Of a DNA stretch of 37,218 nt, positions 1 to 35,377 are shown piece after piece. Position 1 is the stretch's first letter; every line of letters begins with the position of its first letter. The notes under the pieces are model-generated. The model was not told the origin of the DNA. It worked only from the letters and a program-made list of their open reading frames with translations, and did not search any database. The translations under genes and the position numbers were made by a program. The stretch comes from a candidate division TA06 bacterium SM23_40 (GTDB lineage Bacteria; LJUI01; SM1-40). The DNA is taken from the NCBI GenBank assembly GCA_001303705.1, contig LJUI01000009.1, positions 1 to 37,218 on the forward strand, written 5' to 3'.

Positions 1-665
1 ATGAGGATATCGTAGCGTCCGCGAATCCTGTGCAGCGCCGCCTCGATCGACGCTACCGGATCAGTGACAACGAGCTCAGGATCATCCGCTTCTACTCTCG
101 GGATCGCTCCGCCGGAGACAAGCCCCAGGATGGCAATGCGCACGCCCCCCACAGGGATACCGAATATGCGGGTAGCGCCGAAACGCTTGATGATCCAGCG
201 CTCGACAAATGGTGTCCGCCTGTCAGCATGGAAGATATTCGTCGACAGGAGAGGAAGTCGGTAGGCATCCCTCATATGGAGGAGGAAGTTACCGCCGAAT
301 GTCAGATCGAAGTGCCCGACGTTGATGGCCGCACACCCGAGAGCGCCGAGCGAGCGAGAGATGTATTCGGCGGCGAGACGCTTCCCCGGATCGTTCGACA
401 GGAATCCTCCCGAATCGACAACGAGGGTGTGGGAGTCTCGCGACGTCCTTTCCAGGACGAAGGTGGCCCTCCGGGCCATCCCGCCGTAGCGGCCGGACCG
501 TCACCCGCAGGGTATGAGGGCGCTCGCCATGTTCCCCGAGTAGAATATTTTCAGGTTCTCTTTTCGTTCCCCCGGCGAGACAGGCCGGCACCCGGCCATG
601 CTGCACGCCACAAACATGGCTCCGGCGATGACCGTGCTCAGGACCCGATTGATGCCTGATATCAT
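1..665 (-). CDS. UshA/5'-nucleotidase-fold (seleno)lipoprotein, paralog 1; 3' end runs off the window; probable Sec at TGA 501-503 (residue 55)
   Basis: ATG at 665 after a purine-rich RBS. Signal peptide with lipobox MAGC, then IFYSGNMASALIPCG-TGA. Manual translation continues in frame without a stop to the window edge (RSGRYGGMARRATFV..LVVDSGGF..AAINVGHFD..LPLLSTNI..IIKRFG..IAILGL) and is collinear with 3087..4511. Confidence 0.88.
464..478 (-). promoter_or_regulatory. Putative bacterial SECIS apical hairpin (UGGCCC-GGA-GGGCCA)
   Basis: 6-bp stem with a G-starting loop, beginning 22 nt after the in-frame UGA. Same position as in the paralog. Confidence 0.72.
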
Positions 666-753
666 CCTGCCCTCTTGACCCGGATACCTACGCCTATCCC
701 GAGATCGCTCCGTCGATGGCTGATCTTGAAAATAATCCCTTGGTCTGTTCGAC

Positions 754-813
754 TGTCTGTCACACCGCTCGACCAATTGTCGGACCGCCCGAATGTCCGT
801 CACACCGCTCGAC
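754..813. repeat. Three degenerate 20-bp tandem units (TGTCYGTCACACCGCTCGAC)
   Basis: 754-773 and 794-813 are 19/20 identical. The middle unit 774-793 keeps TGTC..ACCGC.CGA. Confidence 0.6.
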
Positions 814-880
814 TACCCGTTCTCCGTCTCGCTTTCACCGTACGCCTGCACAGCCAGGTCCGGGATCCCTGCTGCGGCGC

Positions 881-2773
881 TCAGGGTCTGAGGAAGACAG
901 CCTTGCGCACCTGTCGATCCCCATGCACATCGAGCACGTACAGATAGAGGCCACAGGCTACCCTCACGCCCTCCTCGTCCCGGCCATCCCACTCAAACCG
1001 GCACCTACCGGGTATGGCTTCGCTGGCCTCGATCGTCCGGATGAGCTGGCCGGAGATATTGTATACCCGTATCGCAGGCAGCGGCGAATCCTCCGGAAGA
1101 GAGCAATTGATGGTCGTCAGTTGAGAGAACGGATTGGGGCAGTTCTGCCCCAGTCGAAGCAACCCGTCCGGGTTCGCCGCCGGCTGCTGCTCTCCTTCGA
1201 CCCCCACGCCCCCCAGCACCTCGAAGTCATACGTCTCCACGGGGGCCCCGGGAGGGGTCCGCGCCACGTTCCCCGGCCTATCTCTGGCCTCCACGTAGTA
1301 TCGGATCACAGTGCCCGGAGCCTGGCCGGGGATCTCGCCGCGGAAGAGACTCCCGCCGACCGGCCGCATCGCCAGGCTGTCGAACGTCGGCTCCTCCCCT
1401 GCCCGGTACAGGAGGTCGGCATCGAGGAGGAGCGTGTTGTCGAAACCGGTGACCGTGACCGCATAGGGCCCGAGGGTGTCGTATGTATCGGGCGGGTGCG
1501 AGCACGCGGCGAGAACAGGCGGGGTAGTGTCGGGAGCTCCGTACTGATTGATCAGCAATCTGTTCCGCTGCGGGCTGTTCGCCACCAGAAGATCGAGATC
1601 ATGATCCCCGTCGACATCTGAGAAGGCCGCGCCCTGACTGAAAGAGATATCCTCGGGCAGCCACGTCTCCGTGCTATCAACATAGACTCCGGCTCCTACG
1701 TTTATGTACATGCTGTTCTGTTCGTACCGCGCCACAAACAGATCGAAATCCCCGTCTCCGTCAACATCTCCGATCGCACCATCTGTCGCCTCGTCGAAGA
1801 ATGGTACAGACGGAATCCGCCAGCTCGTCTCATCCCGATACGCTCCTGCACCCGTGTTGATGAGCAGCCGGACATCATCTGAGTAACGGGCGAAGTTCGC
1901 AACGAATAGATCGAGCAGCGAGTCGCCACTCACATCACCGATTCTGATGTGGTAGGTCGTGTCGGCGAGGGCGGGCATGCGTCTGCGGCTGTCGTCCACA
2001 AATAGGCCGCTTCCGTCATTGATGAGCAACCGATTCTGGCGGGCGTCGTTACCGATGACGAGATCGAGGTCACCGTCGCCTTCGACATCACCGACGGCGA
2101 CGGCGCGGCTCGGGTTGCTGGCCGCGGGAAGGAGGGAGTCCGTCAGATCGCTGAAGTAGCCCAGACCATCGTTGACGAGCAGTCGGTTCTGTTCGTCCCG
2201 ATTCACGACCGCGATGTCGATATCGCCGTCACCGTCTACATCTCCCAGGGCAGCGCCGAAACTCAGCCCGTCGGCCGGAGGCAGTCGGAGGGCGCTCTCC
2301 TCGGCGAAATATCCGGAGCCATCGTTGACGAACAGTCTGTTCTGGTAGCCAACATTTGCGACAAGGAGATCGATATCGCCATCGCCGTCGATGTCGCCCA
2401 GCGACCCGTCGCGACTCGGCTCATTGGGAGCACCGGGCATGCGCGTATCCGTCTCGTCGGAGAAGAATCCGTCGCCGTCGTTTATGAGGAGAAAATTCTT
2501 GGCCCCTGCAGGCACGTAGTTCGAAATGTACAGATCGAGATCGCCATCACCGTCAATGTCGCCGGGCTCGATATCGAAACTGCTGTCGTTATAGTCCGGA
2601 AGCCTGAGGCTCGTCTCATCGAGGAAATGCTCCTGTGCCGCGGCCGCCGACGCCAGCGCTACCGCCGATAAGAGCACCATCGCGGCACGTCTGCGGCGGG
2701 CCCGCGGAAGCGGAGCGCACGGCGGGCAGACTGCGAACCGCGCTCCCGTTTTCGGATTCATCATCTGGTCCAT
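881..2773 (-). CDS. Secreted FG-GAP/VCBS repeat (beta-propeller) protein with C-terminal FlgD-Ig/T9SS-like sorting domain
   Basis: About 7 repeats of GD(I/V)DGDGD(L/I)D(L/I)..N....N.L..NDG.G.F.D, a signal-like RRRRAAMVLLSAVALASAAAA, and a C-terminal NCPNPF..VYNISGQLIR..WDGRD..GLYLY..RK. Start uncertain: the ORF is open to 2944, and ATG 2773 follows GGAGG. Confidence 0.85.
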   Translation of the reverse strand: MDQMMNPKTGARFAVCPPCAPLPRARRRRAAMVLLSAVALASAAAAQEHFLDETSLRLPDYNDSSFDIEPGDIDGDGDLDLYISNYVPAGAKNFLLINDGDGFFSDETDTRMPGAPNEPSRDGSLGDIDGDGDIDLLVANVGYQNRLFVNDGSGYFAEESALRLPPADGLSFGAALGDVDGDGDIDIAVVNRDEQNRLLVNDGLGYFSDLTDSLLPAASNPSRAVAVGDVEGDGDLDLVIGNDARQNRLLINDGSGLFVDDSRRRMPALADTTYHIRIGDVSGDSLLDLFVANFARYSDDVRLLINTGAGAYRDETSWRIPSVPFFDEATDGAIGDVDGDGDFDLFVARYEQNSMYINVGAGVYVDSTETWLPEDISFSQGAAFSDVDGDHDLDLLVANSPQRNRLLINQYGAPDTTPPVLAACSHPPDTYDTLGPYAVTVTGFDNTLLLDADLLYRAGEEPTFDSLAMRPVGGSLFRGEIPGQAPGTVIRYYVEARDRPGNVARTPPGAPVETYDFEVLGGVGVEGEQQPAANPDGLLRLGQNCPNPFSQLTTINCSLPEDSPLPAIRVYNISGQLIRTIEASEAIPGRCRFEWDGRDEEGVRVACGLYLYVLDVHGDRQVRKAVFLRP

Positions 2774-3086
2774 GTGGACGAGGGCCTCCATCCGATATCG
2801 CCGGCGGCGTCTGTGGCACCCCGCCAGCAATCCTCCTGTGGGCCTCGTCCAGGAGTCGCCACGGATCCGAGCGCTGATCTGGTGCATGAACTCCCGGACC
2901 GAGCTGATCAGCAATGAGCGTGCCCGGTCTCGAAACTGAGACACATGACACGCTCACCAGGTTTCTCAGACAGTCCCGTCATCTCAGCGAGCTCACTGAG
3001 ATAGGCAAGTCCATATCTTCCTGAGCCCCGCGGCCTCAAAGGTGTGTTCGCCATAGAAGACTCACAGCCTGAGCGATCTCAGGAAC

Positions 3087-4511
3087 TCAGTGAGCTACTT
3101 TCCGTCTATCCTCCGGGAAGTCGAATTCGGGATCCCGCTCCTGATTGTGACACCTCACACAGGTGTACATCGTGATTATAGGCAGCTCTGGCATCAACCT
3201 CCCGTCCGGGAGCTTATGTCGCTCGACGCCCTGCTCCCGGTTCAGGAGGTGCCGCATGCCGAAGCCGTGACACGTCTCGCACTGGACGTTGGCCATCTCG
3301 GGCGTGGTGTCTACGCTCCAGTATCCGTTATACTGGCGGAATCCGGTTGTGTGGCATGGCAGACATTCGAACTTCTTCCCTTCGTCCTCTCTCGTGCTGG
3401 ATTCCAGAGATGCATATGCATCGGCGTGTGCCGTCGTCTTCCACTGTTCGTATTGAGCCTGATGACACGAGCCGCAGCGCTCAGCCCCGGCATATACTTC
3501 CTGTACGTTCTCCGGCCTGGGCTGATTGATCTGAGCTTCGTGCAGTCCTTCCTTGTACTCAGCAATGAGTGCAACCATCGTCGAGTCCTCGCCGATCGAC
3601 TCATCGAGCCTCTGGAGCTTGCCCTCCCAGGACGTCACGCGATTCCTCTCATCGAGGTTGAGCAGAAGGTTGCCCTCGTTCTTTCCCTGCCACCCCGGCT
3701 CGACCATGGGGACACCGCTCCGGAGTTCGGGCTCCAAAGTTTGACGAGATGTGCGTCCGCCCACGAGGAGGTCGATGCCCGCCACCAGCTCCACCAGGGA
3801 GTCACACTGGGCCGTCGACATCTGGACGAGCGCGATGATGACATCACACCCATTCGCCTTCAGCGTCTTCATCGCATCACGCGCCGCCTCGTAGGGGTCT
3901 CCAACCATAAGCTTTCGATCATCCTCGGGCTGGGGCGGCATCTGCTGTGGCGGGGTCAACCCGTTCAATCCCAGAATGCCGACGGTCACATCTGGAGCAC
4001 GCCAGAAGAAGAAGCGAGGCCTCCCGAATTTCTTGATGATGAACGGTTCGGCAAAGAGTTCTCCTGTATCTTCATAGTAGACGTTCGCGGACACATAAGG
4101 CAGTCTGTACCTGCTACGGAGATCAGAGAGAAGGCTCGCTCCCAGTACCGTGTCCTTGAACCCGACGTTAATGGCGTCGTACCCGATCATCTTCATCGCC
4201 CGCAGAAGGTACCTGACTTTGATCTGGCTCATCCAGTCGCCCACATGGATGAAGTTCCCGGCGTCGACGATGAGCTGGTACGCATCCCCGCGACTGCTCT
4301 CCCGAATGTAGGTGGCTCTCCGAGCCATCCCGCCGTCACGGCGCCCGTGTCACCCGCACGGCTCCAGGTAATTCATCATGTTCCCGGAGTAGAAGACCTG
4401 GATTCCCTTCTTGGCCTCTCCCCCTTCAGAAGGAGAGCAGGAGAGAAGACCCAATGCCAGCAGCGCTCCGACGACGACTGCCGCACATAAACGTGTGTAG
4501 ATCCGATGCAT
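3087..4511 (-). CDS. UshA-fold (seleno)lipoprotein fused to tetraheme cytochrome c554-like domain, 474 aa; probable Sec at TGA 4350-4352 (residue 54)
   Basis: ORFs 4350..4550 and 3087..4328 are in the same frame and join as YLEPCG-U-HGRRDGGMARRATYI. Start ATG 4511 (MHRIY.., lipobox LLSC). Nucleotidase-like blocks IVDAGN, YDAINVG, LPYVSAN, VGILGL. Four heme motifs: CGSCH, CLPCH, CETCH, CVRCH. Confidence 0.92.
4313..4327 (-). promoter_or_regulatory. Putative bacterial SECIS apical hairpin (UGGCUC-GGA-GAGCCA)
   Basis: Begins 22 nt after the UGA. A U-A pair replaces the C-G pair of the 464..478 hairpin. Confidence 0.72.
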
Positions 4512-4546
4512 AACACCTACCCTCAACCTGAGCCTCCCTGGACTGG

Positions 4547-5704
4547 TCATTCGACTGCGTGAGTGCGTACTCGCTGCCCTCCTTCGCGACGAGCATCGAT
4601 GTCTGCTCCCTGATGACTACTGTCGATCCCGTACTGCGCGAACAATCTCCCCCACGGCGTCCGCTCAAATTGACGGATGCGCCTGCGCCCAATGGTTGGA
4701 TACCACAGGAGGTCGTGATAGATAGTCGATGCAACCGGCGCCCAAACCCAGAGCGGCGAATGGAGCGCAAGTCGCTTGAGCGGTCGGAGGGACCCCCGCC
4801 TCAGCATCTGGTCGCCACGGATCACCAGGCTCCGCTCACTCCGGAACCCAAGATTGACGTCCTCGATGCTGTCGCCGACGATCTCGACCTGCCGTGGATC
4901 AGCAACGCCCAGCCCGCGTTCCTGGGCCATCGCCAGATAGGGAATGGAGAGTGGGTCGAACCCCATTATCTCCGCTGCGACGGCGTCGATAGCAACCGAA
5001 TCGTTGCTCGCCAGAATAACATTCGCCACAACCGGCCTCATCGTTCGGGGCCCCGCGCCATCGCCCGCGACCGTTCCATCCATGACTGCAAAGATGCCGG
5101 TGTGAAGCTCCCGCTGCATGTACAGCAGATCGACCAGCACCTCGTGAATGAACTCGTGGCCGTAGTGACGAACCTCCTTCAGGAGTCCGCCGAATGCGTT
5201 CTTGATCGCCCCCGTGGTGACCGAGTGTCCGTGTGTCTTCACTGTCGGCAGATGGAGCACGTTCGTCCCGACAAACATCTTCGGGATCTCGATCCCGTCG
5301 GGGAATATCCGGGGTAGCTTCAACAGCGGCGCCTTGAACTCATACCGGATCCATTCCACCTCAGTCAGGGGTATGAAATCGAGGCCGTATCGCTCAAGCA
5401 CCCCCGCCCACTTGTTCTGTCTGGCTCCCTCAATGGGATTGGTGACGACTGTCTTGTTCTCGACGGGCAACAGATGGTCAGGGCTGTACCCATCTTCGAG
5501 CATGGTTCTGACTACACCCTCGAGTTGCCACGGCTGGCTCGAGCAGGCCGGAAAGTAGAGCGTCCACGAGAGGTTGAGTTTGAGGATCGTGTCGTGTTGA
5601 CGGAGAAGAGCCTCGTCGTAGCGAACGAGCCGCATCAACCGGGCATAGTCATCTAGTACAGTCTCTGGCGAAGTGAAGAGCACCCCGACGATTGCGTTTG
5701 CCAT
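4547..5704 (-). CDS. DUF362 family protein (putative Fe-S/LarA-related, uncharacterised)
   Basis: Motifs LKLNLSW, LPTVKTHGHSVTTGAIKNAFG, VMDGTVAGDGAGP and ASNDSVAIDAVAAEIMGFDP. ATG at 5704 preferred over GTG at 5716. Confidence 0.85.
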   Translation of the reverse strand: MANAIVGVLFTSPETVLDDYARLMRLVRYDEALLRQHDTILKLNLSWTLYFPACSSQPWQLEGVVRTMLEDGYSPDHLLPVENKTVVTNPIEGARQNKWAGVLERYGLDFIPLTEVEWIRYEFKAPLLKLPRIFPDGIEIPKMFVGTNVLHLPTVKTHGHSVTTGAIKNAFGGLLKEVRHYGHEFIHEVLVDLLYMQRELHTGIFAVMDGTVAGDGAGPRTMRPVVANVILASNDSVAIDAVAAEIMGFDPLSIPYLAMAQERGLGVADPRQVEIVGDSIEDVNLGFRSERSLVIRGDQMLRRGSLRPLKRLALHSPLWVWAPVASTIYHDLLWYPTIGRRRIRQFERTPWGRLFAQYGIDSSHQGADIDARREGGQRVRTHAVE

Positions 5705-5812
5705 CGAGCATTCCACGGAAAGAGATTACCAGGCCGCGAGCCGCAATCCTCCAGCCGTACCTGCTGAAGACGGCTCTGGCGGCCTAACGTGAAAAAGTCA
5801 CCACGATAGGTG

Positions 5813-17067: not shown

Positions 17068-19995
17068 CTACTTCAGCATAACCATCTTCCGTACGAGCGA
17101 CCGCGAGCCAGCCTCAAGTCGGTACAAGTATATCCCCGAGGAAACACGAGCACCACGGTCGTTCCGTCCGTCCCAGTGGACCGTATACACCCCCGCATCC
17201 TGGGGCTCATTCATCAGCTCGCGAACGAGCTGACCGGCGATGTTGTACACACGCAGACAGACCCGCTCGCCTCCCCTCGGAAGCGCATATGAGATCGTGG
17301 TCGACGGGCTGAACGGATTCGGATAATTCTGATTTAGCATGAAGGCATGCGGCCGCTCAGGATCGAACGGCGGCTCCTCGCTCACCTCAGTCACCAGCGC
17401 CAGCCACGTGAGCACCGAATCCATGAGCTCTGCCTTATGCATCGTCACCGGTGACGAGTCGTCAATCCATCCGAAGTCGAACCCGAAATAGATAAGCCTG
17501 TGACCCGTCGCCCCCGGACCGACCGAATCGACGTATGTGAGTGCAGCAACACCTCCGTCGATATCCAGATAGACGAGCCCTGTGTCCGCCCCGGCAAGCG
17601 GCTCGATCACGTCCTTCGATAGCTCCTGACAGACGAGTACGGTGTCGCCCAGGGGGCTGCCGGGCACACCCTCCAGCACATAGTTCGATGTCGTGCCCGA
17701 TACCAGATCAGCGTGCAGACGATCTGAGTAGAACGGCCAGGCACTGATCTCCTCACCGACGTTCGCTCCCGTGATGAACAGGCCGCCGCCGCCATCGAGG
17801 AACGCACCCAGCGCGAGAGTATCATCAGCAGTGACTGTACTCGTCGTCGCATCTCCCGTCAGCCAGACGACGATCGTGAACTTCGACAGCAAGACGTCAT
17901 CGGGAGACCCCTCTGTCTCCACCTCGTGCTCATCCCAGAGGAAGTTCTCGCGGTCGCCAAAGACCTGCTGGAAGGGCTCTTCATTGTCATCGCCGCCATC
18001 GTCATCGACCAGGAGAACATCAGGCCTCCCGATCCGCTGGACGAAGCTGTCTGTCTCGGCATAACCACCCGCTGCCGTCATGGCGAGATGGAACGTGATA
18101 TCCTCGCACTCTGCACCAGGAGCGACCTCGAACGCAAACGGATCGTCGAACGTCACCGTCGCATTGTGCAGCACCGGCAGAGCACGTGAGGCCATCGAAT
18201 CGGTGATCGTCACTGACGACGGGTTGCTCGAGTGGAGCGTCGCAGCGAACGAGTCTGCTTGCGCCCCCTGGTTCCTGACTGTCACCCAGAGATCGACAGC
18301 CTCACCAGGATCGGGGCGTTCATCTCCATTCCCGGACGAGTCATCGATCGTGTGATCGACATAGGAGATCAGCGGCTCCGCTGTGCCGAACCCTGTGAAT
18401 CCCCAGGCCTCACCCCAACACCACGTCCGCACGAAGTCGTTCCCGAGCTCACCCCGGCCATCCCCGCTCCAGTACCCCCAGCTGTTCTGGAAATAGAACA
18501 CACTATCCGGAGTACTGAACCCGACGAAGTCCCAGGCGTGGCCGCCGCGCGAGGTACAGAGTTCACACGGGTTACACAGACACCCATAACTCGACCAGCC
18601 ATCGCACCCGGGCTGGCCCTCACAGACACCTGATGCCGTGAGGAGGATGCCGTGATGGTACAGCGCGTCGCGCAGCCCGACCAGATCGAAAGTGTTCTGT
18701 ATGAAGAACGACGCAAGGAGGAAGTCATCTCCGCACGGCCCCTCGACGTCGGGGCAATCTCCTATGCATAACCCACTGCCACCGTTCGACATCGGACACC
18801 CCGGGTTGCAGCCGTACGGGGAGCACTCCTCCGTGCAGATACCGTCGATCGTGAGTAACTGGGGGGCATAGGAAGGCGAAGACCCCTCGCAGAACCCGAG
18901 CGGACAGGTGCCGCACTGAGCCCCGCTCGTCACGAGAGAGGAGAGGCAGGCTCCACCCTGCCCCGGGCAGCCGAATCCGCACCATCCCATGCGGCAGTCG
19001 GACCACCCGAGAACGCGCAGATGGTCATAGGCATTCTGCCGGCTGAGGACGGGCTCGATACAGACGCAGGAACCGTCCCCGTCCTTCTCGCAGAGACAGT
19101 CGTACAGCTCCGAGTCGCCGGTCCCCAGGTAGCAGAGACTGCCGCACAGCCACCAGTCGGCAACCGAGGAAACCGCATGGCCGGTGCACGATCCGTAGCT
19201 CCCCTGGTTCTTGATCGGCGGCATCACCGAGAGGGAAAACGCGGGAGGAGGCTGCATCGGGCTCTGCCACAACGAGGATGGCGTGGGCGCCCACTTCGCC
19301 TGCTCGTCCGCAAGCTGCTCATGGTCAGGACTGAGCAACGACCGAAGCGGCTGTTCCACAGGCGCCCGGGTCAGAAGCCGCGGATCGAGGCCATCCGGAG
19401 CGAGAATCGAGCTGACATCTGCACGGACCACATCGCCGTCCCGCGGTGAGGCCAGATAGAGGAGGTACCCATCCTCCTGGGAGAGTACGACCAGACGGGC
19501 CTCATCGCCGAACTCCTCGCCGGTCCACATCGATGCCACGGACTCCATCTCCTCCCAATCGCTGGCATCTATCTCATAGATCGGACGTCCGCCAGGACCC
19601 CAGTTCGGCGTGCCCACTGCCCTGCCGCTATACGGATCGAACTTGATGAACCCGCCGATAATGTCGCCCCTCTGGAGCGGGACCGCCCAGTACTTCGGCC
19701 CGACAGGACTGCAGAAAAGACGCGGCTTCCCCGCTCGGGCTCCGCTATAGAGAGCGAATAGCTCCTGCTGGATGATATCGCGCGGGTTCTGCGCCAGCAG
19801 GTGCTCGGCCCTCATGGCCCGCTCGGCGACATAGTCCTCCGCGATCGCCGCCATCTCGTCCGCTGAGAGCACCCCCTCTCCCAACTCGCCGAGCCACATC
19901 ACCTCGCTGCGAAACGGCTCGCGTGCTCCCTCTGCGCCAAGAGCACAACAGAATAGAATCAACAGACTCATCCCGACGGTCATTCTCGCTCTCAT
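17068..19995 (-). CDS. Secreted papain-like (C1) cysteine protease, Cys-rich, with FlgD-Ig/T9SS-like tail; copy 1 (975 aa)
   Basis: Signal peptide, PIKNQGSYGSCTGHA (oxyanion Gln and catalytic Cys), GGHAWDFVG (His), FYFQNSWG (Asn), and C-terminal NYPNPF..WDGRND..RKMVMLK. ATG 19995 follows AAGGAG. Confidence 0.88.
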   Translation of the reverse strand: MRARMTVGMSLLILFCCALGAEGAREPFRSEVMWLGELGEGVLSADEMAAIAEDYVAERAMRAEHLLAQNPRDIIQQELFALYSGARAGKPRLFCSPVGPKYWAVPLQRGDIIGGFIKFDPYSGRAVGTPNWGPGGRPIYEIDASDWEEMESVASMWTGEEFGDEARLVVLSQEDGYLLYLASPRDGDVVRADVSSILAPDGLDPRLLTRAPVEQPLRSLLSPDHEQLADEQAKWAPTPSSLWQSPMQPPPAFSLSVMPPIKNQGSYGSCTGHAVSSVADWWLCGSLCYLGTGDSELYDCLCEKDGDGSCVCIEPVLSRQNAYDHLRVLGWSDCRMGWCGFGCPGQGGACLSSLVTSGAQCGTCPLGFCEGSSPSYAPQLLTIDGICTEECSPYGCNPGCPMSNGGSGLCIGDCPDVEGPCGDDFLLASFFIQNTFDLVGLRDALYHHGILLTASGVCEGQPGCDGWSSYGCLCNPCELCTSRGGHAWDFVGFSTPDSVFYFQNSWGYWSGDGRGELGNDFVRTWCWGEAWGFTGFGTAEPLISYVDHTIDDSSGNGDERPDPGEAVDLWVTVRNQGAQADSFAATLHSSNPSSVTITDSMASRALPVLHNATVTFDDPFAFEVAPGAECEDITFHLAMTAAGGYAETDSFVQRIGRPDVLLVDDDGGDDNEEPFQQVFGDRENFLWDEHEVETEGSPDDVLLSKFTIVVWLTGDATTSTVTADDTLALGAFLDGGGGLFITGANVGEEISAWPFYSDRLHADLVSGTTSNYVLEGVPGSPLGDTVLVCQELSKDVIEPLAGADTGLVYLDIDGGVAALTYVDSVGPGATGHRLIYFGFDFGWIDDSSPVTMHKAELMDSVLTWLALVTEVSEEPPFDPERPHAFMLNQNYPNPFSPSTTISYALPRGGERVCLRVYNIAGQLVRELMNEPQDAGVYTVHWDGRNDRGARVSSGIYLYRLEAGSRSLVRKMVMLK

Positions 19996-20622
19996 CGCAG
20001 GTTTCTCCTTTCCCGTCTCCGTAGACCTATCGAGTTCTCGGAAGTAGCCATGCACGCCGCCGCCCCAAATCCTGGAATCCCTCCGGCCTCTCCGTGAGGC
20101 CGAAGCCAGGGGCAGAAAAAATGGGCAGGGAGCACCTCAGCCCCTACCCCATAGGTGTCAGATTGAAGAAAGACTGGCCGCGCCCGAATCGGCCAATACC
20201 CCACCCCCACCCTACCCTCCCCAACCCCCTTATCATACTAACCCCCGGCACGCTACTGTCAAGTCCCGGGTCGGCCGCACCCGGAGAGCCGCTTTCCCCG
20301 TAGGCTCGTCCAAACAGAGGATCCCCTGGGGGACTGGCCCTCAGGATGACACAGATCCCCGCAGCCCGTACACTGAGCCCGAAAACCGAGGATCGAGGGA
20401 GACCGTGACCCCGCCTATTATGGGACCCGCGACAGAATGAGTACCGGCACCCCACCCCTGCCCGTTGAGGATCGAAGAAGTGAAGGGACAGACGTCACCC
20501 AATCCCTCCCCACGGAGCAGAGCCGAAGAGAGAATACATCGGGTCAACATACCCCTACCCACGAGGCAGAGCCGGACATGTGGATCCGTACCGGTCACCA
20601 TACCCTTATGCAAACAGCAGCG

Positions 20623-20658
20623 CAAAAAGAACGGGTAGGGAGATCGAACTCCCTACCC
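20623..20658 (-). terminator. Intrinsic terminator after protease copy 2
   Basis: Perfect 10-bp stem GGGTAGGGAG/CTCCCTACCC with a 6-nt loop, followed on the minus strand by GTTCTTTTTG. Confidence 0.8.
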
Positions 20659-20726
20659 ATTGAGTGAACCAGTGGCCGTAGCCCGTATGTTGACGCGCTT
20701 GCGGTGGCGTCGCCCACGCCCTCGTT

Positions 20727-23648
20727 CTACTTCAGCATCACCATCTTCCGTACCAGCGACCGCGAGCCAGCTTCAAGGCGATAGAAATACACTCCTGAGG
20801 AGACCCGAGACCCACGGTCATTTCGTCCGTCCCAGTGGACCATATAGGCTCCTGCCTCCTGCGGCTCGTCGACGAGCTCACGGACGAGCTGGCCTGCGAT
20901 GTTGTAGACACGCAGGCACACCCGCTCACCGTTGCTGGGAAGCGCATACGAAATCGCCGTCGATGGACTGAACGGATTCGGATGGTTCTGCTTCAGCATG
21001 AAGACATGGGGACGCTCAGGATCGAACGGCGGCTCCTCGGTCACCTCAGTCACCAGCATCAGCCAGGTGAGAATCGAATCCATCAGCTCGGGTTTGTGCA
21101 TCGCTATCGGCGACTGATCATCGATCCAGCCGAAATCGAACCCGAAGTACACGAGCCGGTGACCCGTTGCCCCGGGACCCACCGAATCGACATAAGTTAT
21201 GGCCGCCACCCCGCCGTCCATGTCCAGATAGATGAGAGCCGTATCAGCCTCCGCAAGCGGCTCGATCACATCTTTCGATGACTGCTCACAGATCAAGAAC
21301 GTGTCACACAGAGCGCTCGTCGGCACACCGTCCAGCACATAGTTCGCCGTCGTGCCTGATACAAACCCGGCGTGGAGACGATCCGAGTAGAATGGCCAGC
21401 TGTTGATCTCCTCACCGATGTTGGCACCCGTGAGGAAGAGGCCGCCGCCTCCATCGAGAAACGAACCAAGAACAACCGTATCAGCGGCAGTGACCGTGTT
21501 GGCCGTCGCATCTCCTGTCAGCCAGACGATGATCGGAAACTTCGACAGCAGAACTTCATCGGGAGATCCCTCTGTCTCCACCTCATGTTCATCCCAGAGG
21601 AAGTCCACGCGCCCCTCGAATACCTCCTGAAACGCCTCCTCGTTATCCGCTCCGCCGTCGTCGTCGACGAGGAGCACATCAGGCCTGCCGATCCGCTGTA
21701 CAAAGCTATCGGTCTCGGCATAGCCGCCCGCCGCGGTCATGGCGAGGTAGAAGGTAATATCCTCACACTCCGCACCAGGAGCAACCTCGAAGGCGAACGG
21801 ATCGTCGAAGGCCGCCGACCAGTTGTGGAGCACCGGCAGCGCACGCGATGCCGTGGCATCGGTGATATTGACCGCCGACGGATTGCTGCAGGAGAGCGTT
21901 GCCTGTAGCGAGTCGGCCTGGGCACCTATATTCCTCACCGTGGCCCAGAGCTCGACTGTCTCCCCGGGATCCGGCCTCCCGTCGTTGTTCCCCGAGGAAT
22001 CGTCGATCGTGTGCTCATCATAATAGAGCTTGGGCTCAGTCGGAGTGAACCCCCAGAAGAGATACGCCGCAGTTCCGCACCACCGCCGCACATAGCTATT
22101 GCCAAGCTCACCACGGCCGTCGCCGCCCCAGTACCCCCAGCTGTTCTGGAAGTAGAACAGGCTATCCGGCGCATTATACCCGACCAAGTCCCAAGCGTGC
22201 CCCCCGCTTGGCCCACACGAAACGCACGGATCACACAGACAGCCATAACTCCCCCAGCCATCACATCCAGCCTGTGCGCCGTTACATACAGTGCTGCTGG
22301 CGAGGAGGATCCCGTGATGATAAATGGCATCCCGCAATCCCGGGATATCGTCTGTCGACTGTGTCGCATATCCCTGGAGGAGAAAGTCGTCGCCGCATGG
22401 CCCTTCGACGTCAGGGCAGTCCCCGGTGCACTGACCGCTCCCGCCGTTCGACATGGCACATCCCGGATCACATCCGTAATGAACGCACTCCTCCGTACAC
22501 AGCCCGTCGAGCACGAAGATCGGACCTGCGTACTGCGGCGAGGAACCCTCGCACCGGTCGCAGGTGCCGCACTCGACGCCGCTGGTCACAAGCGAGCTGA
22601 GACACGACCCTCCTACGCCCGGACAGCCCGGCTCACACAGCCCCTGACGGCAGTCAGCATTGCCAAGGTACCGAAGGCGGTCATAGGCATTCTGTCGGCT
22701 CAGTACCGGATCGACGCAGACACACGCACCGTCCGAATCCTTCTCACAGAGACAGTCATATAGCTCGGAGTCGCCTGTCCCCATGTAACAGAGACTGCCG
22801 CACAGCCACCAGTCGCCGCACGATGAGGTTGCGTGCCCTGTGCATGATCCGTACCCACCCTGATCCTTGATCGGCGGCATCACGGTCAGAGAAAAGACGT
22901 CCGGCTGCATCGAACCCCGCCGTGACGGTGGAGTCTCCGGGACCTGACGAACCTGCTCTTGCCCCATCGGTCCCTGGTCCAGGCCGAGTGACGATCGAAG
23001 AGATCGCTCCACTGGCGCCGTTGCCAACAGCCGCGGATCGAGACCCGTGGGAGCGAGGATCGAACTGACGTCAGCTCGCACGACCCCATCGCCGCTCGGC
23101 GACGCAAGGTAGACCAGGTACCCATCCTCTTGCTCCAGGATAACCACCCGTGTCTCGCCGCCGAACCGCTCTCCAGTCCACGCCGATGCGAACGACTCCA
23201 TCTCATCCCATTGACGACCGTCAATCGAATAGAGAGGCTCACCGCCCGCTCCCCAATTGGGAGTCCCCACTGCTTTTCCACTATACGGATCAAACTTGAT
23301 AAATCCCCCTATCGTATCTCCTCGCTGAAGTGGCACCGCCCAGTACTTCGGGCTGAGTGCGGTGAAGAAGAGCCGCGGCTTTCCTGCCCTGGCTCCGTTG
23401 TACAGATTGAATAGCTCGCTCTGGATGATGTCGCGTGGATTGGCCGCCAAAAGACGCCTGGCCTTCACAGCCCGTTCCTCGATATACTGCTGCGCCACTG
23501 CGGCGATTTCCTCGGTCGATAGCGCACCGTCATGGAGCTCGCCGAGCGACATCACCTCGGTGCGAAACGGTTCCCGTGCCCCCTGGGCACCTAAGGCACA
23601 ACAGAGGAGGATGAGCACGCTCACCCCGATGGCCATCCTGGTCCTCAT
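20727..23648 (-). CDS. Secreted papain-like (C1) cysteine protease, copy 2 (973 aa)
   Basis: IKDQGGYGSCTGHA, GGHAWDLVG, QNSWG. Collinear with copy 1. RBS AAGGAG. Confidence 0.88.
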   Translation of the reverse strand: MRTRMAIGVSVLILLCCALGAQGAREPFRTEVMSLGELHDGALSTEEIAAVAQQYIEERAVKARRLLAANPRDIIQSELFNLYNGARAGKPRLFFTALSPKYWAVPLQRGDTIGGFIKFDPYSGKAVGTPNWGAGGEPLYSIDGRQWDEMESFASAWTGERFGGETRVVILEQEDGYLVYLASPSGDGVVRADVSSILAPTGLDPRLLATAPVERSLRSSLGLDQGPMGQEQVRQVPETPPSRRGSMQPDVFSLTVMPPIKDQGGYGSCTGHATSSCGDWWLCGSLCYMGTGDSELYDCLCEKDSDGACVCVDPVLSRQNAYDRLRYLGNADCRQGLCEPGCPGVGGSCLSSLVTSGVECGTCDRCEGSSPQYAGPIFVLDGLCTEECVHYGCDPGCAMSNGGSGQCTGDCPDVEGPCGDDFLLQGYATQSTDDIPGLRDAIYHHGILLASSTVCNGAQAGCDGWGSYGCLCDPCVSCGPSGGHAWDLVGYNAPDSLFYFQNSWGYWGGDGRGELGNSYVRRWCGTAAYLFWGFTPTEPKLYYDEHTIDDSSGNNDGRPDPGETVELWATVRNIGAQADSLQATLSCSNPSAVNITDATASRALPVLHNWSAAFDDPFAFEVAPGAECEDITFYLAMTAAGGYAETDSFVQRIGRPDVLLVDDDGGADNEEAFQEVFEGRVDFLWDEHEVETEGSPDEVLLSKFPIIVWLTGDATANTVTAADTVVLGSFLDGGGGLFLTGANIGEEINSWPFYSDRLHAGFVSGTTANYVLDGVPTSALCDTFLICEQSSKDVIEPLAEADTALIYLDMDGGVAAITYVDSVGPGATGHRLVYFGFDFGWIDDQSPIAMHKPELMDSILTWLMLVTEVTEEPPFDPERPHVFMLKQNHPNPFSPSTAISYALPSNGERVCLRVYNIAGQLVRELVDEPQEAGAYMVHWDGRNDRGSRVSSGVYFYRLEAGSRSLVRKMVMLK

Positions 23649-23801
23649 CGCATGTCTCTCCTTTCTCCTGCCCGCAAACCTGTAAGAACTCCCGTCGCGA
23701 AGATGTAAGTGACTTCGTCATCGACGCTAACAAGAAACAAGCAGACCCATCCACCACCCCTTCGCCACTGGTCCTTGCCCGGGATCTGCCCTCTCCTGCC
23801 T

Positions 23802-23830
23802 AGCTTACCGGATCCGCCTGCGATTGTCAA
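23802..23830 (-). promoter_or_regulatory. Sigma70-type promoter of protease copy 2
   Basis: TTGACA-17 bp-TAAGCT. Confidence 0.65.
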
Positions 23831-24054
23831 CCATAATGAGCCACAAAAACTGAGAAAAAGTCCACACCTATCTGTTTCGGCAGCGACGGCTGCATCCATT
23901 TACAACACCGTAACTTCCGCCCCAGTTCCCCAGTACCGCCGGGACCGGACCGGGATCATCCCTGGCGAGATCCGGCCAGGGCAGATAGCCCCAGAACATG
24001 AATGGGCAACGCCCCGGATGCGGCGAGGGGAAAACCGGGCCTTGTCGGCCCCCC

Positions 24055-26982
24055 TCACTTCAGCATTACCATCTTGCGCGCCAGCGAACGCGAGCCAGCC
24101 TCAAGGCGGTAGAAATAGACCCCTGAGGAGACTTGAGACCCACGGCCATTTCGCCCATCCCAGCGGACCGTATACATTCCCGCATCGTGTGGCTGGTCGA
24201 CGAGCTCACGGACGAGCTGGCCCGCGATGTTGTAGACACGCAGGCAGACCTGCTCACCGCTGCTGGGAACCGCATACGAAATCACCGTCGACCCGCCAAA
24301 CGGATTGGGGGAGTTCTGCTTCAACAAGAAGACATGCGGACGCTCGGGATCGAACGGCGGCTCCTCGCTCACACCCGTCACCAGCATCAGCCATGTGAGC
24401 ACCGAATCCATCAACTCCGGCTTGTGCATCGCCACCGGCGACTGGTCATCGATCCACCCGAAGTCGAAGCCGAAGTACACCATCCGGTGACCGGTCGCAC
24501 CCCGCCCTACCGAATCGACATAGGTGATGGCCGCCACCCCGCCGTCCATGTCCAGATAGATGAGCGCCGTATCCGCCTCGGCAAGCGGCTCGATCACATC
24601 CTTCGACGGCTCTTCGCAGATGAGGAGCGTGTCACACAGAGCGCTCGTCGGCACACCGTCGAGCACATAGTTGGCCGTCGTCCCCGAGACAAACCCGGCG
24701 TGCAGCCGATCCGAGTAGAACGGCCAGCCGCTGATCTCCTCACCGATGTTTGCTCCCGTGAGGAAGAGGCCGCCGCCGCCATCCAGAAACGCACCAAGCG
24801 CGAGCGTATCGTCGGCAGTCACCGTGTTCGCCGTCGCGTCACCCGTCAGCCAGACCACAAGAGGATACCTCGACAGCAGCGCCCCATCGGGAGATCCCTC
24901 AGTCTCCACCTCGTGCTCATCCCAGAGGAAGTCCTCGCGATCCCCGAATACCTGCTGGAACGGCTCCTCGTTGATCGCCCCGCCGTCATCGTCCACGAGC
25001 AGCACATCCGGTCTGCCGATCCGCTGGACGAAGCTGTCGGTCTCTGCGTAGCCGCCCGCCGCCGTTATGGCGAGGTAGAACGTGATGTCCTCGCACTCCG
25101 CACCGGGATCGACCTCGAAGACGAAGGGATCATGGAAGGACGCCGTCTGGTTGTGGAGGAGGGGCAACTGACGTGATGCAGTAGAGTCGGTGATGATCAC
25201 AGCAGAAGGATTGCTCGATGAGAGTGTGGCCTCGACCGAATCGGCCTGCACGCCGGCGTTCTTGACCGTGACCCACAATTCGATCGTCTCTCCCGGATCA
25301 GGCCTGCCGTCGGCATTGCCAGATGAATCATCAACCGCATGCGCCATGTAGAATATCCTGGGTATCGTCGCATTGTATCCCTCGAATCCCCATGTCTCAC
25401 CGTAGCACCACCGCCGTATGAAGCTATTCCCCAGCTCGCCCCTGCCGTCGCCGCTCCAATATCCCCAGCTATTCTGGAAGTAGAAGAGGCTGTCGGGAGC
25501 GTTGTACCCGACGAGGTCCCAGGCGTGGCCCCCACGCGACGTGCACGCCTCGCACGGATCGCACAGGCATCCATAGCTTGACCAACCATCGCACCCCGGC
25601 TGTCCCAGGCAGACCCCGGAAGCTGCCAGGATGATACCATGATGATAGATGGCCTCCCGCAGCCCGGGTAGATCGTTTGTCGACTGGATGAAGTATGACC
25701 GGAGCACGAAGTCATCACCACAGTCTCCCGCCACATCCGGGCAGACGTCCGTACACTGCCCGCTCCCGCCGTTCGAGAGCGCACAGCCGGGATCGCACCC
25801 ATATGAGGCGCACTCTTCGGTGCAGAGACCATCGTTCAGGAATATATGTGGAGCATACACGGGATCTGACCCCTCGCAGTACCCGTACGGACAGGTCCCA
25901 CACTCGACTCCGCTCGTCACGAGGGAGCTGAGACAGGCACCACCCTGCCCGGGGCATCCCCCTGCGCACAGCCCCTGGCGGCAGTCGGCACCGCCCAGGT
26001 AGCGCAATCGATCATAAGCATTCTGCCGGCTCAGGATCGGATCGATGCACTCACACGAACCGTCCGGATCCTTCTCACAGAGACAGTCATACAGCTCTGA
26101 ATCGCCCGTGCCCAGATAACAGATGCTCCCGCAGAGCCACCAGTCCCCGACAGAAGAGACGGCATGGCCGGTGCACGATCCGTACCCTCCCTGATTCTTG
26201 ATCGGGGGCATTACCGAGAGCGAGAAGACATCGGGAGGTTGCATCGCGCCCTGCCACAGAGACAGGAGAGCAGGCGCGGTCTCCGCCTGCTCGTCAGCTC
26301 GCCGTTGGTGGTCAGGGCTGAGCAGCGAGCGAAGCGGCCGCTCGGCCGGCGCCTTCGTCAACAGCCGCGGATCGAGGCCGGTCGGTGCGAGAATCGAACT
26401 GACATCCGCCCTGACCACATCGTCGCCCCGCGGCGACGCCAGGTACAATAGATGCCCGTCCTCCTGCATCAGAACCAGGAGACGGGTCTCATCTCCGAAC
26501 CGCTCGCCCGTCCACAGGGTGGCGATCGACTCCATCTCCTCCCACTGACGAGCATCTATCGAATAGAGCGGTCGGCCACCTGCACCCCAGTTCGGAGTGC
26601 CCACCGCCTTCCCACTGTACGGATCGAACTTTATGAACCCGCCTATCGTGCCTCCTCTCTGTAGCGGCACAGCCCAGTACTTCGGACCCAGCTGGCTGAA
26701 GAAGAGCCGCGGTTTTCCTGCCCTGGCCCCGTCATACAGATTGAATATCTCGTTCTGAATAATGTCGCGCGGATCACCCGCCAACAGGCGCTCGGCCTTC
26801 AGCGCCCGCTCCTCGATATAGCGCTGCGCAACCCAAGCCATCTCGTCAGCCGACATCACCCCCTCCTGGAGCTCGCCGAGCCAGGTCACCTCGGCACGAA
26901 ACGGCTGCCGCGCTGCCTGAGCCCCCAGAGCATAACAGAACAGGATGAGCACCATCACCCATGCGGTCCACCTGGCATTCAT
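24055..26982 (-). CDS. Secreted papain-like (C1) cysteine protease, copy 3 (975 aa)
   Basis: IKNQGGYGSCTGHA, GGHAWDLVG, QNSWG. Start ATG 26982 chosen by alignment with the paralog signal peptides. Confidence 0.88.
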   Translation of the reverse strand: MNARWTAWVMVLILFCYALGAQAARQPFRAEVTWLGELQEGVMSADEMAWVAQRYIEERALKAERLLAGDPRDIIQNEIFNLYDGARAGKPRLFFSQLGPKYWAVPLQRGGTIGGFIKFDPYSGKAVGTPNWGAGGRPLYSIDARQWEEMESIATLWTGERFGDETRLLVLMQEDGHLLYLASPRGDDVVRADVSSILAPTGLDPRLLTKAPAERPLRSLLSPDHQRRADEQAETAPALLSLWQGAMQPPDVFSLSVMPPIKNQGGYGSCTGHAVSSVGDWWLCGSICYLGTGDSELYDCLCEKDPDGSCECIDPILSRQNAYDRLRYLGGADCRQGLCAGGCPGQGGACLSSLVTSGVECGTCPYGYCEGSDPVYAPHIFLNDGLCTEECASYGCDPGCALSNGGSGQCTDVCPDVAGDCGDDFVLRSYFIQSTNDLPGLREAIYHHGIILAASGVCLGQPGCDGWSSYGCLCDPCEACTSRGGHAWDLVGYNAPDSLFYFQNSWGYWSGDGRGELGNSFIRRWCYGETWGFEGYNATIPRIFYMAHAVDDSSGNADGRPDPGETIELWVTVKNAGVQADSVEATLSSSNPSAVIITDSTASRQLPLLHNQTASFHDPFVFEVDPGAECEDITFYLAITAAGGYAETDSFVQRIGRPDVLLVDDDGGAINEEPFQQVFGDREDFLWDEHEVETEGSPDGALLSRYPLVVWLTGDATANTVTADDTLALGAFLDGGGGLFLTGANIGEEISGWPFYSDRLHAGFVSGTTANYVLDGVPTSALCDTLLICEEPSKDVIEPLAEADTALIYLDMDGGVAAITYVDSVGRGATGHRMVYFGFDFGWIDDQSPVAMHKPELMDSVLTWLMLVTGVSEEPPFDPERPHVFLLKQNSPNPFGGSTVISYAVPSSGEQVCLRVYNIAGQLVRELVDQPHDAGMYTVRWDGRNGRGSQVSSGVYFYRLEAGSRSLARKMVMLK

Positions 26983-27124
26983 GGTTGCGATCCCCCCTAT
27001 ACTCCCGAAGACCCTGTTTGAGGATGCAGTATGCAACATCGATCCCTCCACAAGACCAGCAAGGGCAGATCCGTCAGCTGCCGCTCACGCGGGTACCTCT
27101 GCCCGGGACCTGCCCCTTGCCTCG

Positions 27125-27153
27125 ATATTATCGAATAGACGCTGAGGTGTCAA
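27125..27153 (-). promoter_or_regulatory. Sigma70-type promoter of protease copy 3
   Basis: TTGACA-17 bp-TAATAT. The downstream sequence resembles that of the copy 2 promoter. Confidence 0.7.
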
Positions 27154-27184
27154 GCCTTGTGAGCCAACAAGCGGCGCGAGGCGC

Positions 27185-30115: not shown

Positions 30116-30391
30116 CACTGCCACCCCCTCGTATAGTGTGTGTGAAATGCCAATGGGGGATCAATCCCCCCCCAGCAATCAGTCGGGATTGCTGGATCTC
30201 TCGCCGATTTTTGCCTCAAATCTATGGGAGGTCCCGTGTATCATGTCCGATGCATCAACGTGAATCGGACTGAGGAGGAAACAGCTGCACCCCCTTGCGG
30301 CTCCCGTATCGAAAAATCCACACGGCCTCCTTCCCAGAAGGCATTACCGGGTTCTTCAGGCAGCCAATCTAGGAGGCGAGGCCACCATCAC

Positions 30392-31401: not shown

Positions 31402-31968
31402 CTATTTTCCCTTTTCTTTCTTCTCTTCCTGCGCCTCTTCTCCCGTCTCCTTCTCGATCATATGGATCCCTTCGGGACTGGCCACGTATTCTTCATAGTC
31501 GAAGCCCGTGAATTCAGGACTTCGCTCGTTATGGCACTTCACGCACACCTCCGGCCCCGGAGGGATGATTAGCCCCTTTGAGATGGCCAGTTCTCGATCC
31601 TTCATCACCGACGCGTTCCAGTAGTTGCTCCCCGCTCCGTGACACGCCTCACATTGCACGTTCACCATCTGCGGGGTACTCTCCAGATCGACGAACCCGC
31701 CCTCCTCTCCGTACCCGGTGGTGTGACAAGAGAGACACATCTTATTAGCCTTCGCCTCGTCGTCCAGGCTGTCGATGGCGTGGGCATGGACCGTCTTCTC
31801 CCACGCAGCGAAGATATCGGAGTGGCACATCTTGCATTTCTTCTGACCGACGTAAGTCGCTGGTGCTTCCTCTTCCTCGGCTTGCTCAGCAACAAGACCG
31901 CCCCAAGCAACAAGGCAGAGGCCAACAGCCAGCACGACAGCCAGATACCTCAACAGAGCAGCGTGCAC
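31402..31968 (-). CDS. Periplasmic tetraheme cytochrome c554-like protein
   Basis: Signal peptide, YVG..KCKMCH, CLSCHTTG, VQCEACHG and CVKCH. Confidence 0.9.
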   Translation of the reverse strand: MHAALLRYLAVVLAVGLCLVAWGGLVAEQAEEEEAPATYVGQKKCKMCHSDIFAAWEKTVHAHAIDSLDDEAKANKMCLSCHTTGYGEEGGFVDLESTPQMVNVQCEACHGAGSNYWNASVMKDRELAISKGLIIPPGPEVCVKCHNERSPEFTGFDYEEYVASPEGIHMIEKETGEEAQEEKKEKGK

Positions 31969-32004
31969 CGGATTCTCACCCCCTTCCGATCAATAGCGGA
32001 CTGC

Positions 32005-32033
32005 AGTCTATCAGGTTCCTCAGCCGATGTCAA
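32005..32033 (-). promoter_or_regulatory. Sigma70-type promoter of the tetraheme cytochrome gene
   Basis: TTGACA-17 bp-TAGACT. Confidence 0.7.
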
Positions 32034-32354
32034 GGCTCCGATCCGCTCGGTGTCAACCGCCAATAGAGATGTTGCGGTTCCCGACGGAGCGGAAATGCCT
32101 GTTCAGACCGACCAGGGCAGGTCACCGCCGAAAAAGTAGAGGACGGCCAGCACCGAATCCGGTCGTCCCCTCAAAGCTATTGCCCAATGTAAGGCCGCTT
32201 ATCCCGATCCGTCGCCCCAATGCAGTGAGCGTTTTGCTTTGGAGATGCGACTGAAACGGTTCGGCTATCGACAACGCACGATCACGCACTCACGTCTCTG
32301 GAGCTCCGCGAACACCGACACATGTACCGTCCGTTCGATCAGCTCGCAGGCTGC

Positions 32355-34535: not shown

Positions 34536-34887
34536 GTGCCTCCTGGGCGCCTGACCAATCCTGCCCGCGATGCCGCCCCATCCCTGTCGATCGACTTCAT
34601 GGCTCCCACTGCCTCGAGTTCTCTAGCCGTCGCCGGCTCGCCTTCCAGATCATGTATCCCCTGCCAGACCGTGCGTCGACACGCCTCGATGATTTCCCAT
34701 GGGATGGCTAGACCCACGTCTTCGGACTCTCCACCAGGATCGAAAGCTCCGTTGAACCCGACCGGCGCGCCTCCTCGGCACCGGCGGCTCGCCGGTTCAT
34801 GGAACGAAGCCCCTCTCCTTTCAGGCCGAGGGGCTACACCAGCAACTGAGAATCATAGATGCTCCGTTCGAGACCGGCAACAAGTAC

Positions 34888-35325
34888 CTATTCAGCTTTC
34901 TCCTTCTCAGCCTTCTCGATCTCGCCCTTGAGCCAGGGCTCGATGGTGCCGCCGTGGAAGAGGATGCCCAACTCGTCGTCGAGAGCAGAGGGTTCTAGCT
35001 TCATCACCCACCCTTTGCCGTACGGATCCTGATTGAGCAGGAGCGGATTGTCCTCGAGGGCTTCGTTGATCTCGGCGATCTCGCCGCTCAACGGCGCGAC
35101 GAGCTTACCCACCCACTTCGACGACTGGACCTTGCCGCAGGTCTCCCCCTGCTCGACATCATCTCCCTCATCGGGAAGATCGACGTATGTCGTATCGCCG
35201 GCCAGCTTGAAGTAGAACTCGTTGATCCCCACAGTCACCGTGCCATCATCGTTCTTGCGTGCCCAGGCATGGTCGGCATGGTAGTACAGCTCGTCCGGCA
35301 TGTTGTATCCAAGAATGTCAGCCAT
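34888..35325 (-). CDS. Lipoyl-carrier protein, GcvH/LbpA-like
   Basis: YYHADHAWAR, VTVGI, VQSSKWVG (lipoyl-Lys), APLSGEI..IN and NQDPYGKGW. ATG 35325 follows GAGGAGG. Confidence 0.9.
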   Translation of the reverse strand: MADILGYNMPDELYYHADHAWARKNDDGTVTVGINEFYFKLAGDTTYVDLPDEGDDVEQGETCGKVQSSKWVGKLVAPLSGEIAEINEALEDNPLLLNQDPYGKGWVMKLEPSALDDELGILFHGGTIEPWLKGEIEKAEKEKAE

Positions 35326-35377
35326 CCTGACCCTCCTCTCCATCCCTTTGGGACGACGTCGTCACACACCTTCTCCG

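Follow-up and report, generated by a model that had tools for sequence, protein, structure and literature searches.

It was found that a reading frame leaving the left end of the window (the window being the whole stretch of DNA analysed here, 37,218 nucleotides of contig LJUI01000009.1 from the candidate division TA06 bacterium SM23_40) in all likelihood belongs to an intact gene for a 465-aa selenoprotein, here called paralog A. UGA55 of A would be decoded as selenocysteine (Sec) by SelB at a hairpin just downstream. In the predicted product, Cys53-Gly-Sec55 is part of a 5′-nucleotidase/SoxB-type fold, to which a four-heme domain resembling cytochrome c554 is joined, and the gene appears to be an old, fast-evolving duplicate of a neighbour, paralog B. 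I put the probability of this reading, which is drawn from sequence comparison, at roughly 95%. The features are as follows.

3..665, minus strand: CDS of paralog A, codons 1-221 of a 465-aa UshA-like selenoprotein, leaving at the contig edge (from the translation, an NF041198 score of 95.6 bits for the piece, and the continuation in L041:3-1061 and in P0123 and P0126-P0129)
588..665, minus strand: probable lipoprotein signal peptide, Met1-Cys26, with a lipobox-like M-A-G-C, as read from the sequence
670..676, minus strand: purine-rich AAGAGGG, a possible ribosome binding site upstream of ATG 665
501..512, minus strand: Pro-Cys-Gly-Sec motif with TGA 503-501 as codon 55, in the column of the TGA of B
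461..481, minus strand: SECIS-type hairpin of A, stem 478-473 with 469-464, C-GGA-G apex 27 nt past the UGA, fitting the bSECIS model in PMC13188914
3..479, minus strand: piece annotated by gene callers, starting at Met63, without signal peptide and CxU (ORF list and public records)
881..2944, minus strand: secreted FG-GAP repeat protein with a FlgD-Ig tail, between A and B (Pfam; no link to A or B shown)
3087..4511, minus strand: paralog B, 474 aa, PCGU with TGA at 4352-4350, four CxxCH (NF041198 251.7 bits against a cut-off of 275; fold model)
4310..4330, minus strand: SECIS-type hairpin of B, in the register of A, with U-A in place of the C-G of A (sequence and folding comparison)

The initial annotation had read the frame as MISG...MAGC...IFYSGNMASALIPCG-TGA-RSGRYGGMARRATF, and translation of the minus strand from 665 to 3 reproduces it. 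The sole in-frame TGA lies at 503-501 and is followed by 166 open codons up to the window edge, in line with the more than 160 that had been claimed. A was also rightly described as missed by the ORF list, which shows just a piece from ATG 479 and a separate frame ending at 501. Met63 is an in-frame ATG eight codons past the TGA, and each of the six public records of A inspected starts at this residue or matches from it onwards. With their start downstream of the UGA, these calls are missing both the signal peptide and the active-site motif, so that A resembles an orphan cytochrome in them. The codon score of A in frame is positive on either side of the UGA (+0.10 and +0.16); the scores of its other frames are negative, save the antisense shadow downstream (+0.07). 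Promoter and terminator scans gave results at chance level.

The truncation of A is an assembly edge, since the first base of the window is the first base of its contig, C13, in a 2.88-Mb genome of 60% GC that is 89.8% complete. The locus L041 is identical to window positions 1-328 at 323 of 328 bases (98.5%), carries the frame of A on to its stop codon, beyond which its sequence agrees at 99.6% with the beginning of contig C111. It bridges C13 to C111; about 1030 bases between the two are absent from the assembly, their sole trace being a weak 40-base match. Leftward extension, which the initial annotation had suggested as a search for CxxCH motifs, revealed four CxxCH at the end of the protein, both in L041 and in public proteins, and the continuation in L041 scores 52.7 bits with PF13435 (gathering threshold 20.8). 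A protein search with the post-UGA frame of A gave one cluster of seven records. Five of these are 403 aa long with four CxxCH, and none of their six variable sites falls on a Cys or His ligand. The length of 465 aa follows from the 403-aa records and the 62 upstream residues. Stops or frameshifts downstream of the UGA, which would have spoken against the gene, were not found in L041 or in the five public proteins. Contigs from four of the 18 listed runs (marine sediment, seawater, estuary) extend beyond the window start, with no indel within A and no other letter at the TGA among the variants listed; the best-matching runs may be the source sample itself. No RNA data set is among the listed runs, which carries no information on expression. 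A DNA search of the genome contigs with A gave 403 stretches, none of which was confirmed, and a broad alignment contained no stretch of sufficient conservation for a further search.

Is the UGA read as selenocysteine? The comparison of sequences suggests that this is almost certainly the case. It is the homology and the motif that carry the argument, not the openness of the frame. In the six frames of the genome, 1026 of 87460 TGAs (1.2%) have at least 53 open codons before and at least 166 after them, so that an open frame around a TGA proves little alone. The genes selA, selB, and selD scored above their cut-offs and a tRNASec is present; the genome thus holds the selA, selB, selC, and selD genes required for SelB-decoded selenoproteins. 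The tRNASec gene lies directly before selD (G000:C58:183-1365; L011), and selD has its own in-frame TGA at 469 (C-A-G-U) with a GUA-GGUC-UAC hairpin. Natural PCGC forms exist among the homologues, with Cys at the column of the UGA. The Sec machinery, the UGA kept in 75 of the 80 motif-matching loci listed from other genomes, the Cys forms, and a covarying hairpin support the earlier inference that UGA recoding has been selected. A nonsense mutation was rejected as the origin of the TGA in A.

The hairpin of A has a 6-bp stem and a C-GGA-G apex (−15.3 kcal/mol for a 30-nt stretch) and fits the bSECIS consensus model as laid out in the relevant passage of PMC13188914. Random synonymous recoding of A gave 6/6 pairs in 13% of trials, and the hairpin of A alone is weak evidence. 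The hairpin of B is the stem of A with U-A replacing C-G, both at synonymous positions, which makes a compensatory pair. Of 37 other Sec genes that share the ARRA peptide, 32 have the wobble pair 29-35 in Watson-Crick form (25 C-G and 7 U-A), a count reached by 0 of 20000 permutations, although kin are not independent. The C-GGA-G stem occurs in 42 of 86 Sec genes versus 0 of 16 Cys genes, a contrast confounded by the search pattern, which already prescribed part of the peptide, and again drawn from related genes that are not independent. In L042-L121, two SECIS registers are seemingly used on the G-G-x-x-R-R codons 18-42 nt past the UGA, a GGUCU-loop hairpin (40/86) and the C-GGA-G hairpin (42/86). 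The folding z-score of A (−1.69) is not significant, nor are the whole-region scores. An Rfam search of window positions 1-5000 gave no SECIS match and three unrelated sub-threshold matches.

The alignment of A with B, which had been claimed from the outset, was recovered at 36-38% identity (E about 1e-35), and the TGA of A stands opposite the TGA of B in the same column. When further PCG-TGA paralogs were counted in the genome, as had been proposed, a six-frame motif scan and a family search found two, A and B, and none beyond them. In a quick tree (LG+G4, 104 rows, rows shorter than 200 aa left out), A groups with B and P0004, a 69% orthologue of B, with a weak SH-aLRT support of 84; the support of the enclosing clade is 98. 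From the shared node, the branch of A measures 0.9 versus 0.61 for B. A is probably an old duplicate of B that has been evolving faster. Since A and B group together in the tree, if weakly, they probably share a single inherited UGA that both have retained, and would not be independent origins. The description of A as an independent paralog therefore stands for the retention of the UGA but not for its origin. No root or order of events is claimed, because deep support is weak and true UshA is placed inside the tree. A DUF362 gene (4547-5716, minus strand) ends 35 bases ahead of the start codon of B on the same strand, and is not a recurrent neighbour in other loci.

Selection on A was assessed from A against B, with the part beyond the contig edge taken from L041. 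The dN/dS is 0.22 before the UGA (33 codons only), 0.53 after it in the window (166 codons), and 0.39 beyond the edge (229 codons). Since dS is saturated (pS of 0.62-0.73, near saturation), these values say just that the ratio is below 1. The check across the UGA advised in the initial annotation thus came out as hoped on both sides, poorly measured and with a higher value after the UGA than before. Twelve strain variants are listed in A, six synonymous and six non-synonymous, the replacements being mostly conservative, and pN/pS is about 0.35 (6/491 vs 6/172 sites).

To which family does A belong? The best NCBIfam match of both A and B is NF041198 (UshA_like_PCGU), an UshA-like (seleno)protein, and they share with it the PCGU motif, the UshA-type N-domain, and a C-terminal multiheme region (model positions 344-518). 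The post-UGA part of A scores 213.5 bits and the equivalent part of B 215.6; the whole of B scores 251.7, under the cut-off of 275. As the post-UGA parts are alike, full-length A would probably score near 250 bits and fall under the cut-off as well. By sequence, A is placed with the NF041198 family as a homologue and not as an equivalog member by score. The cut-off is reached in only 12 of 50 genomes that have PCG-TGA genes. In PMC2398784 (2008), PMC9312934, and PMC13188914, the family appears as 'COG0737, UshA-like, CxU', and the first of these has it among the major selenoprotein families of an ocean survey (76 sequences, 20 samples). What defines it in these catalogues is present in A, namely an UshA/5′-nucleotidase-like domain (NF041198 and nucleotidase matches, with the fold seen on the model of B) and a CxU motif for which homologues with Cys exist (PCG-TGA in both paralogs, PCGC forms). 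As far as its sequence tells, A is a divergent further copy of an already catalogued selenoprotein family. Searches of the open-access literature for UshA-like selenoproteins showed catalogue entries only, and the catalogue passages in the three papers give no function and leave hemes unmentioned.

The DNA pattern P-C-G-TGA-x5-G-G-x-[AS]-R matched at least 120 stretches, of which 80 loci were listed. Seventy-five of these belong to the family and stay open over a long stretch past the TGA, the motif being conserved in them through the choice of the search pattern; five were dropped from the counts (L050, L059, L113, and L116, not family; L088, a weak match). L088:5001-5041 has PCG-TGA with a stop 12 codons on and a weak family score, and is perhaps a decayed or frameshifted copy. 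In L086 and L102, the PCG-TGA is preceded by 675 and 588 open codons, possibly N-terminal fusions. By record title, the family loci belong to Myxococcota, Marinimicrobia, Krumholzibacteria, Eisenbacteria, Acidobacteriota, Desulfobacterota, and others. Sixty-nine of the 75 genes end inside their locus, at least 199 codons past the TGA, 39 with four CxxCH and 30 with none. At least nine of 50 genomes, a chosen subset, have two or more UGA copies (G043, G049, G058, G066, G069, G071, G078, G080, and G083), which makes the paralogy of A and B ordinary. Tandem pairs are found in G078 (Sec/Sec) and G080 (Sec/Cys).

Clustering of 525 neighbour ORFs showed no family-wide operon. Rhodanese and MauE/DoxX genes flank the family gene in 8-9 of the 75 loci; these neighbours come from one Marinimicrobia clade and L071, and neither type has a match in the present genome (G000). 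A rhodanese-like and/or MauE/DoxX gene lies directly beside the Sec gene in L044, L052, L064, L069, L071, L080, L095, L098, L104, and L119, which are mostly heme-less Marinimicrobia forms. Two runs of genes elsewhere in the window were also noted, both on the minus strand. The run at 31402-36816 looks like a heterodisulfide/lipoate-linked electron-transfer module, with hdrC-like, hdrB-like, and gcvH-like genes, a cytochrome of 20 CxxCH motifs that begins like NrfH, and a c554-like tetraheme gene that stands alone and is 36% identical to the heme domain of B. The other, at 17068-30124, encodes four proteins in tandem, each about 1000 aa long, in which a FlgD-Ig/sorting domain at the C-terminus is the one clear family match.

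The fold model of B (pLDDT 90.3, pTM 0.81) superimposes on the 5′-nucleotidase 2z1a (Z 32.9, rmsd 2.5, 277 aligned) and on SoxB 2wdc (Z 31.6, rmsd 3.2, 283 aligned), and its C-terminus on cytochrome c554 1bvb (Z 11.0, rmsd 3.4, 134 aligned). The model resembles UshA/CD73 and SoxB (2z1a, 1ush, and 2wdc, of the calcineurin-like metallophosphoesterase fold) in the N-terminal fold and the long linker helix (Z 31.6-32.9). Unlike these proteins, A and B are without the dimetal ligands and the catalytic His, have a CxU loop, and carry a cytochrome in place of the C-terminal substrate domain. The metal and catalytic residues of 5′-nucleotidases and metallophosphoesterases lie in the motifs DxH, GD, GNH, H, and GHxH. 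Eight such columns were taken from the genome's own UshA on contig C100, and both A and B keep 0/8 of them; A has N, A, G, H, F, Q, V, and W, with His118 at the Asn-ligand position. The CxU loop comes directly after the first metal motif and lies where the active site used to be. All eight residues are lost in only 6 of 69 other Sec genes, which keep 0-5 of the eight (3-5 in 29 of the 69), and the Asn-His pair is kept in 0 of 75 Sec genes. With its dimetal site gone, A would not be a phosphoesterase, and an active 5′-nucleotidase/metallophosphoesterase was rejected for A.

In the heme domain, exactly three further His are conserved for four hemes (in 39, 38, and 35 of 39 genes), and A has all three. 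A cytochrome c554-like tetraheme domain (PF13435) is thus recognised in A by a score above gathering, four CxxCH, and three distal His. Cytochrome c554 of Nitrosomonas (1bvb) and hemes 1-4 of OcwA likewise have four CxxCH and three further His, and sequence matches to c554 have E values of 1e-7 for A and 1e-11 for B. The domain of A and B differs from c554 in being shorter and fused to a selenoprotein domain, and scores 32-50 bits against an equivalog cut-off of 400. Since there are three extra His for four hemes, one heme would have no protein sixth ligand. The open site in c554 and OcwA is heme 2, according to the part of 10.1101/641308 that deals with it. By analogy, three hemes of A would be bis-His and heme 2 would have an open site. 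The genome has three PF01578 matches for cytochrome c assembly genes, and A is predicted from its signal peptide to be exported as a lipoprotein. Many homologues carry redoxin domains fused to the c554-like domain. In P0059, P0068, P0085, P0118, and P0072, it is doubled behind redoxin domains, or occurs in UshA-like proteins with an added DsbA-like domain.

What may such a protein do? I give about even odds to A being an exported Cys-Gly-Sec/tetraheme oxidoreductase of the cell envelope for sulfur or disulfide bonds. Sec would attack an S-S or Se-S bond (of polysulfide, persulfide, thiosulfate, or a protein disulfide), Cys53 would resolve the Sec adduct to give a selenenylsulfide, and the heme chain, standing in place of the substrate-binding lid of 5′-nucleotidases, would re-reduce the selenenylsulfide one electron at a time. 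A precedent for S-S cleavage by Sec and heme is MccSep (PMC13510729), the only tested one found for this chemistry. In MccSep/ExtKL, a multiheme selenoprotein polysulfide reductase of Geobacter (NF040886), as in the predicted product of A, a single Sec and its partner Cys belong to a c-type protein that has several hemes and is exported. MccSep/ExtKL differs in having five hemes, the Sec inside the cytochrome domain, a His/Cys-ligated heme, and no nucleotidase fold. Membership of A in ExtKL/MccSep was rejected (NF040886 29.6 bits against a cut-off of 250; four hemes; Sec in another domain), and the relation is a possible analogy. The oxidoreductase proposal is favoured by the lost metal site, the conserved heme ligands, the redoxin fusions, and the rhodanese and MauE/DoxX neighbours. 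Against it, there is no conserved operon, and 29 of 69 relatives keep 3-5 of the eight metal residues, which a pure redox scaffold would not need. The lack of a heme motif in 30 of 69 complete Sec genes also counts against it, and indicates that the CxU domain needs no fused cytochrome.

Those heme-less genes sit more easily with a remodelled hydrolase or sulfur-transfer site, SoxB-like, in which Cys and Sec of a true selenoprotein would serve as metal ligands or nucleophile, or as soft-metal binders, and the hemes as an accessory sensor or relay. The position of the CxU loop directly after the first metal motif, His118 at the Asn-ligand position, the Asp and His ligands kept in many relatives, and the ranking of SoxB with the nucleotidases (Z 31.6; TIGR04486 E 4e-12) all agree with such a site. 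I nevertheless consider it unlikely for A, as none of the eight canonical residues is left in A and B and the heme ligands hardly vary among proteins that have the domain. A could instead be an electron carrier or a thiol-redox maintenance protein for envelope proteins, in a DsbA/CcmG-like role, rather than an enzyme for small sulfur substrates. Large secreted proteins and multiheme cytochromes, of which many are encoded in this genome, would suit this role, and the fusions of c554-like domains to redoxin and DsbA-like domains and the MauE/DoxX neighbours point the same way. But A is without a thioredoxin fold and its probable open heme site suggests catalysis, so that a maintenance role seems decidedly improbable.

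The other two alternatives concern the gene rather than its chemistry. The long branch of A (0.9 vs 0.61), the loss of every metal residue, and six non-synonymous changes among the 12 listed strain variants could be those of a redundant duplicate under relaxed selection, heading to a pseudogene, with the UGA simply inherited. A search for an orthologue of A outside its own species-level cluster found none (1 match among 1234 candidates, which is weak evidence) and is compatible with such decay. However, across about 65% amino-acid divergence A has kept the full frame, the signal peptide, the CxU, the hairpin, four CxxCH, and three distal His, and its pN/pS is about 0.35; I regard decay as very unlikely. 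The public gene calls starting at Met63 and the in-frame ATG eight codons past the TGA could also be taken to mean that the TGA is a real stop, the gene being split with a second start at Met63, or that another code makes it Trp or Gly. A stop would part the signal peptide and the first β-strand from a c-type cytochrome that needs export, and the homologues have Cys at this column. Of 794 long frames in the genome, 397 end in TGA, its commonest stop, and the genome also has RF2 and tRNA-Trp(CCA). Thus no other genetic code applies, an alternative code was rejected, and hardly any weight is left for a TGA that is not read as Sec.

The corrected gene model of A, the selenoprotein reading, restores the signal peptide and the active-site motif missing from the inspected public calls. 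Since multi-copy and tandem arrangements occur elsewhere, a second paralog itself adds little. What A and B offer together is a testable pair with no metal site left, in a family spread over many phyla. It may be speculated, with considerable doubt, that a sulfur oxidoreductase combining Sec with heme was built a second time, independently, in the UshA-like family. A dead nucleotidase fold would present its Cys-Gly-Sec to heme 2, the open one, in a c554-like lid, converging on the chemistry of MccSep. A and B would then be the purest form of the family, and A a duplicate specialised for another substrate or direction. The interest lies in the function of the UshA-like family, not in copy A itself.
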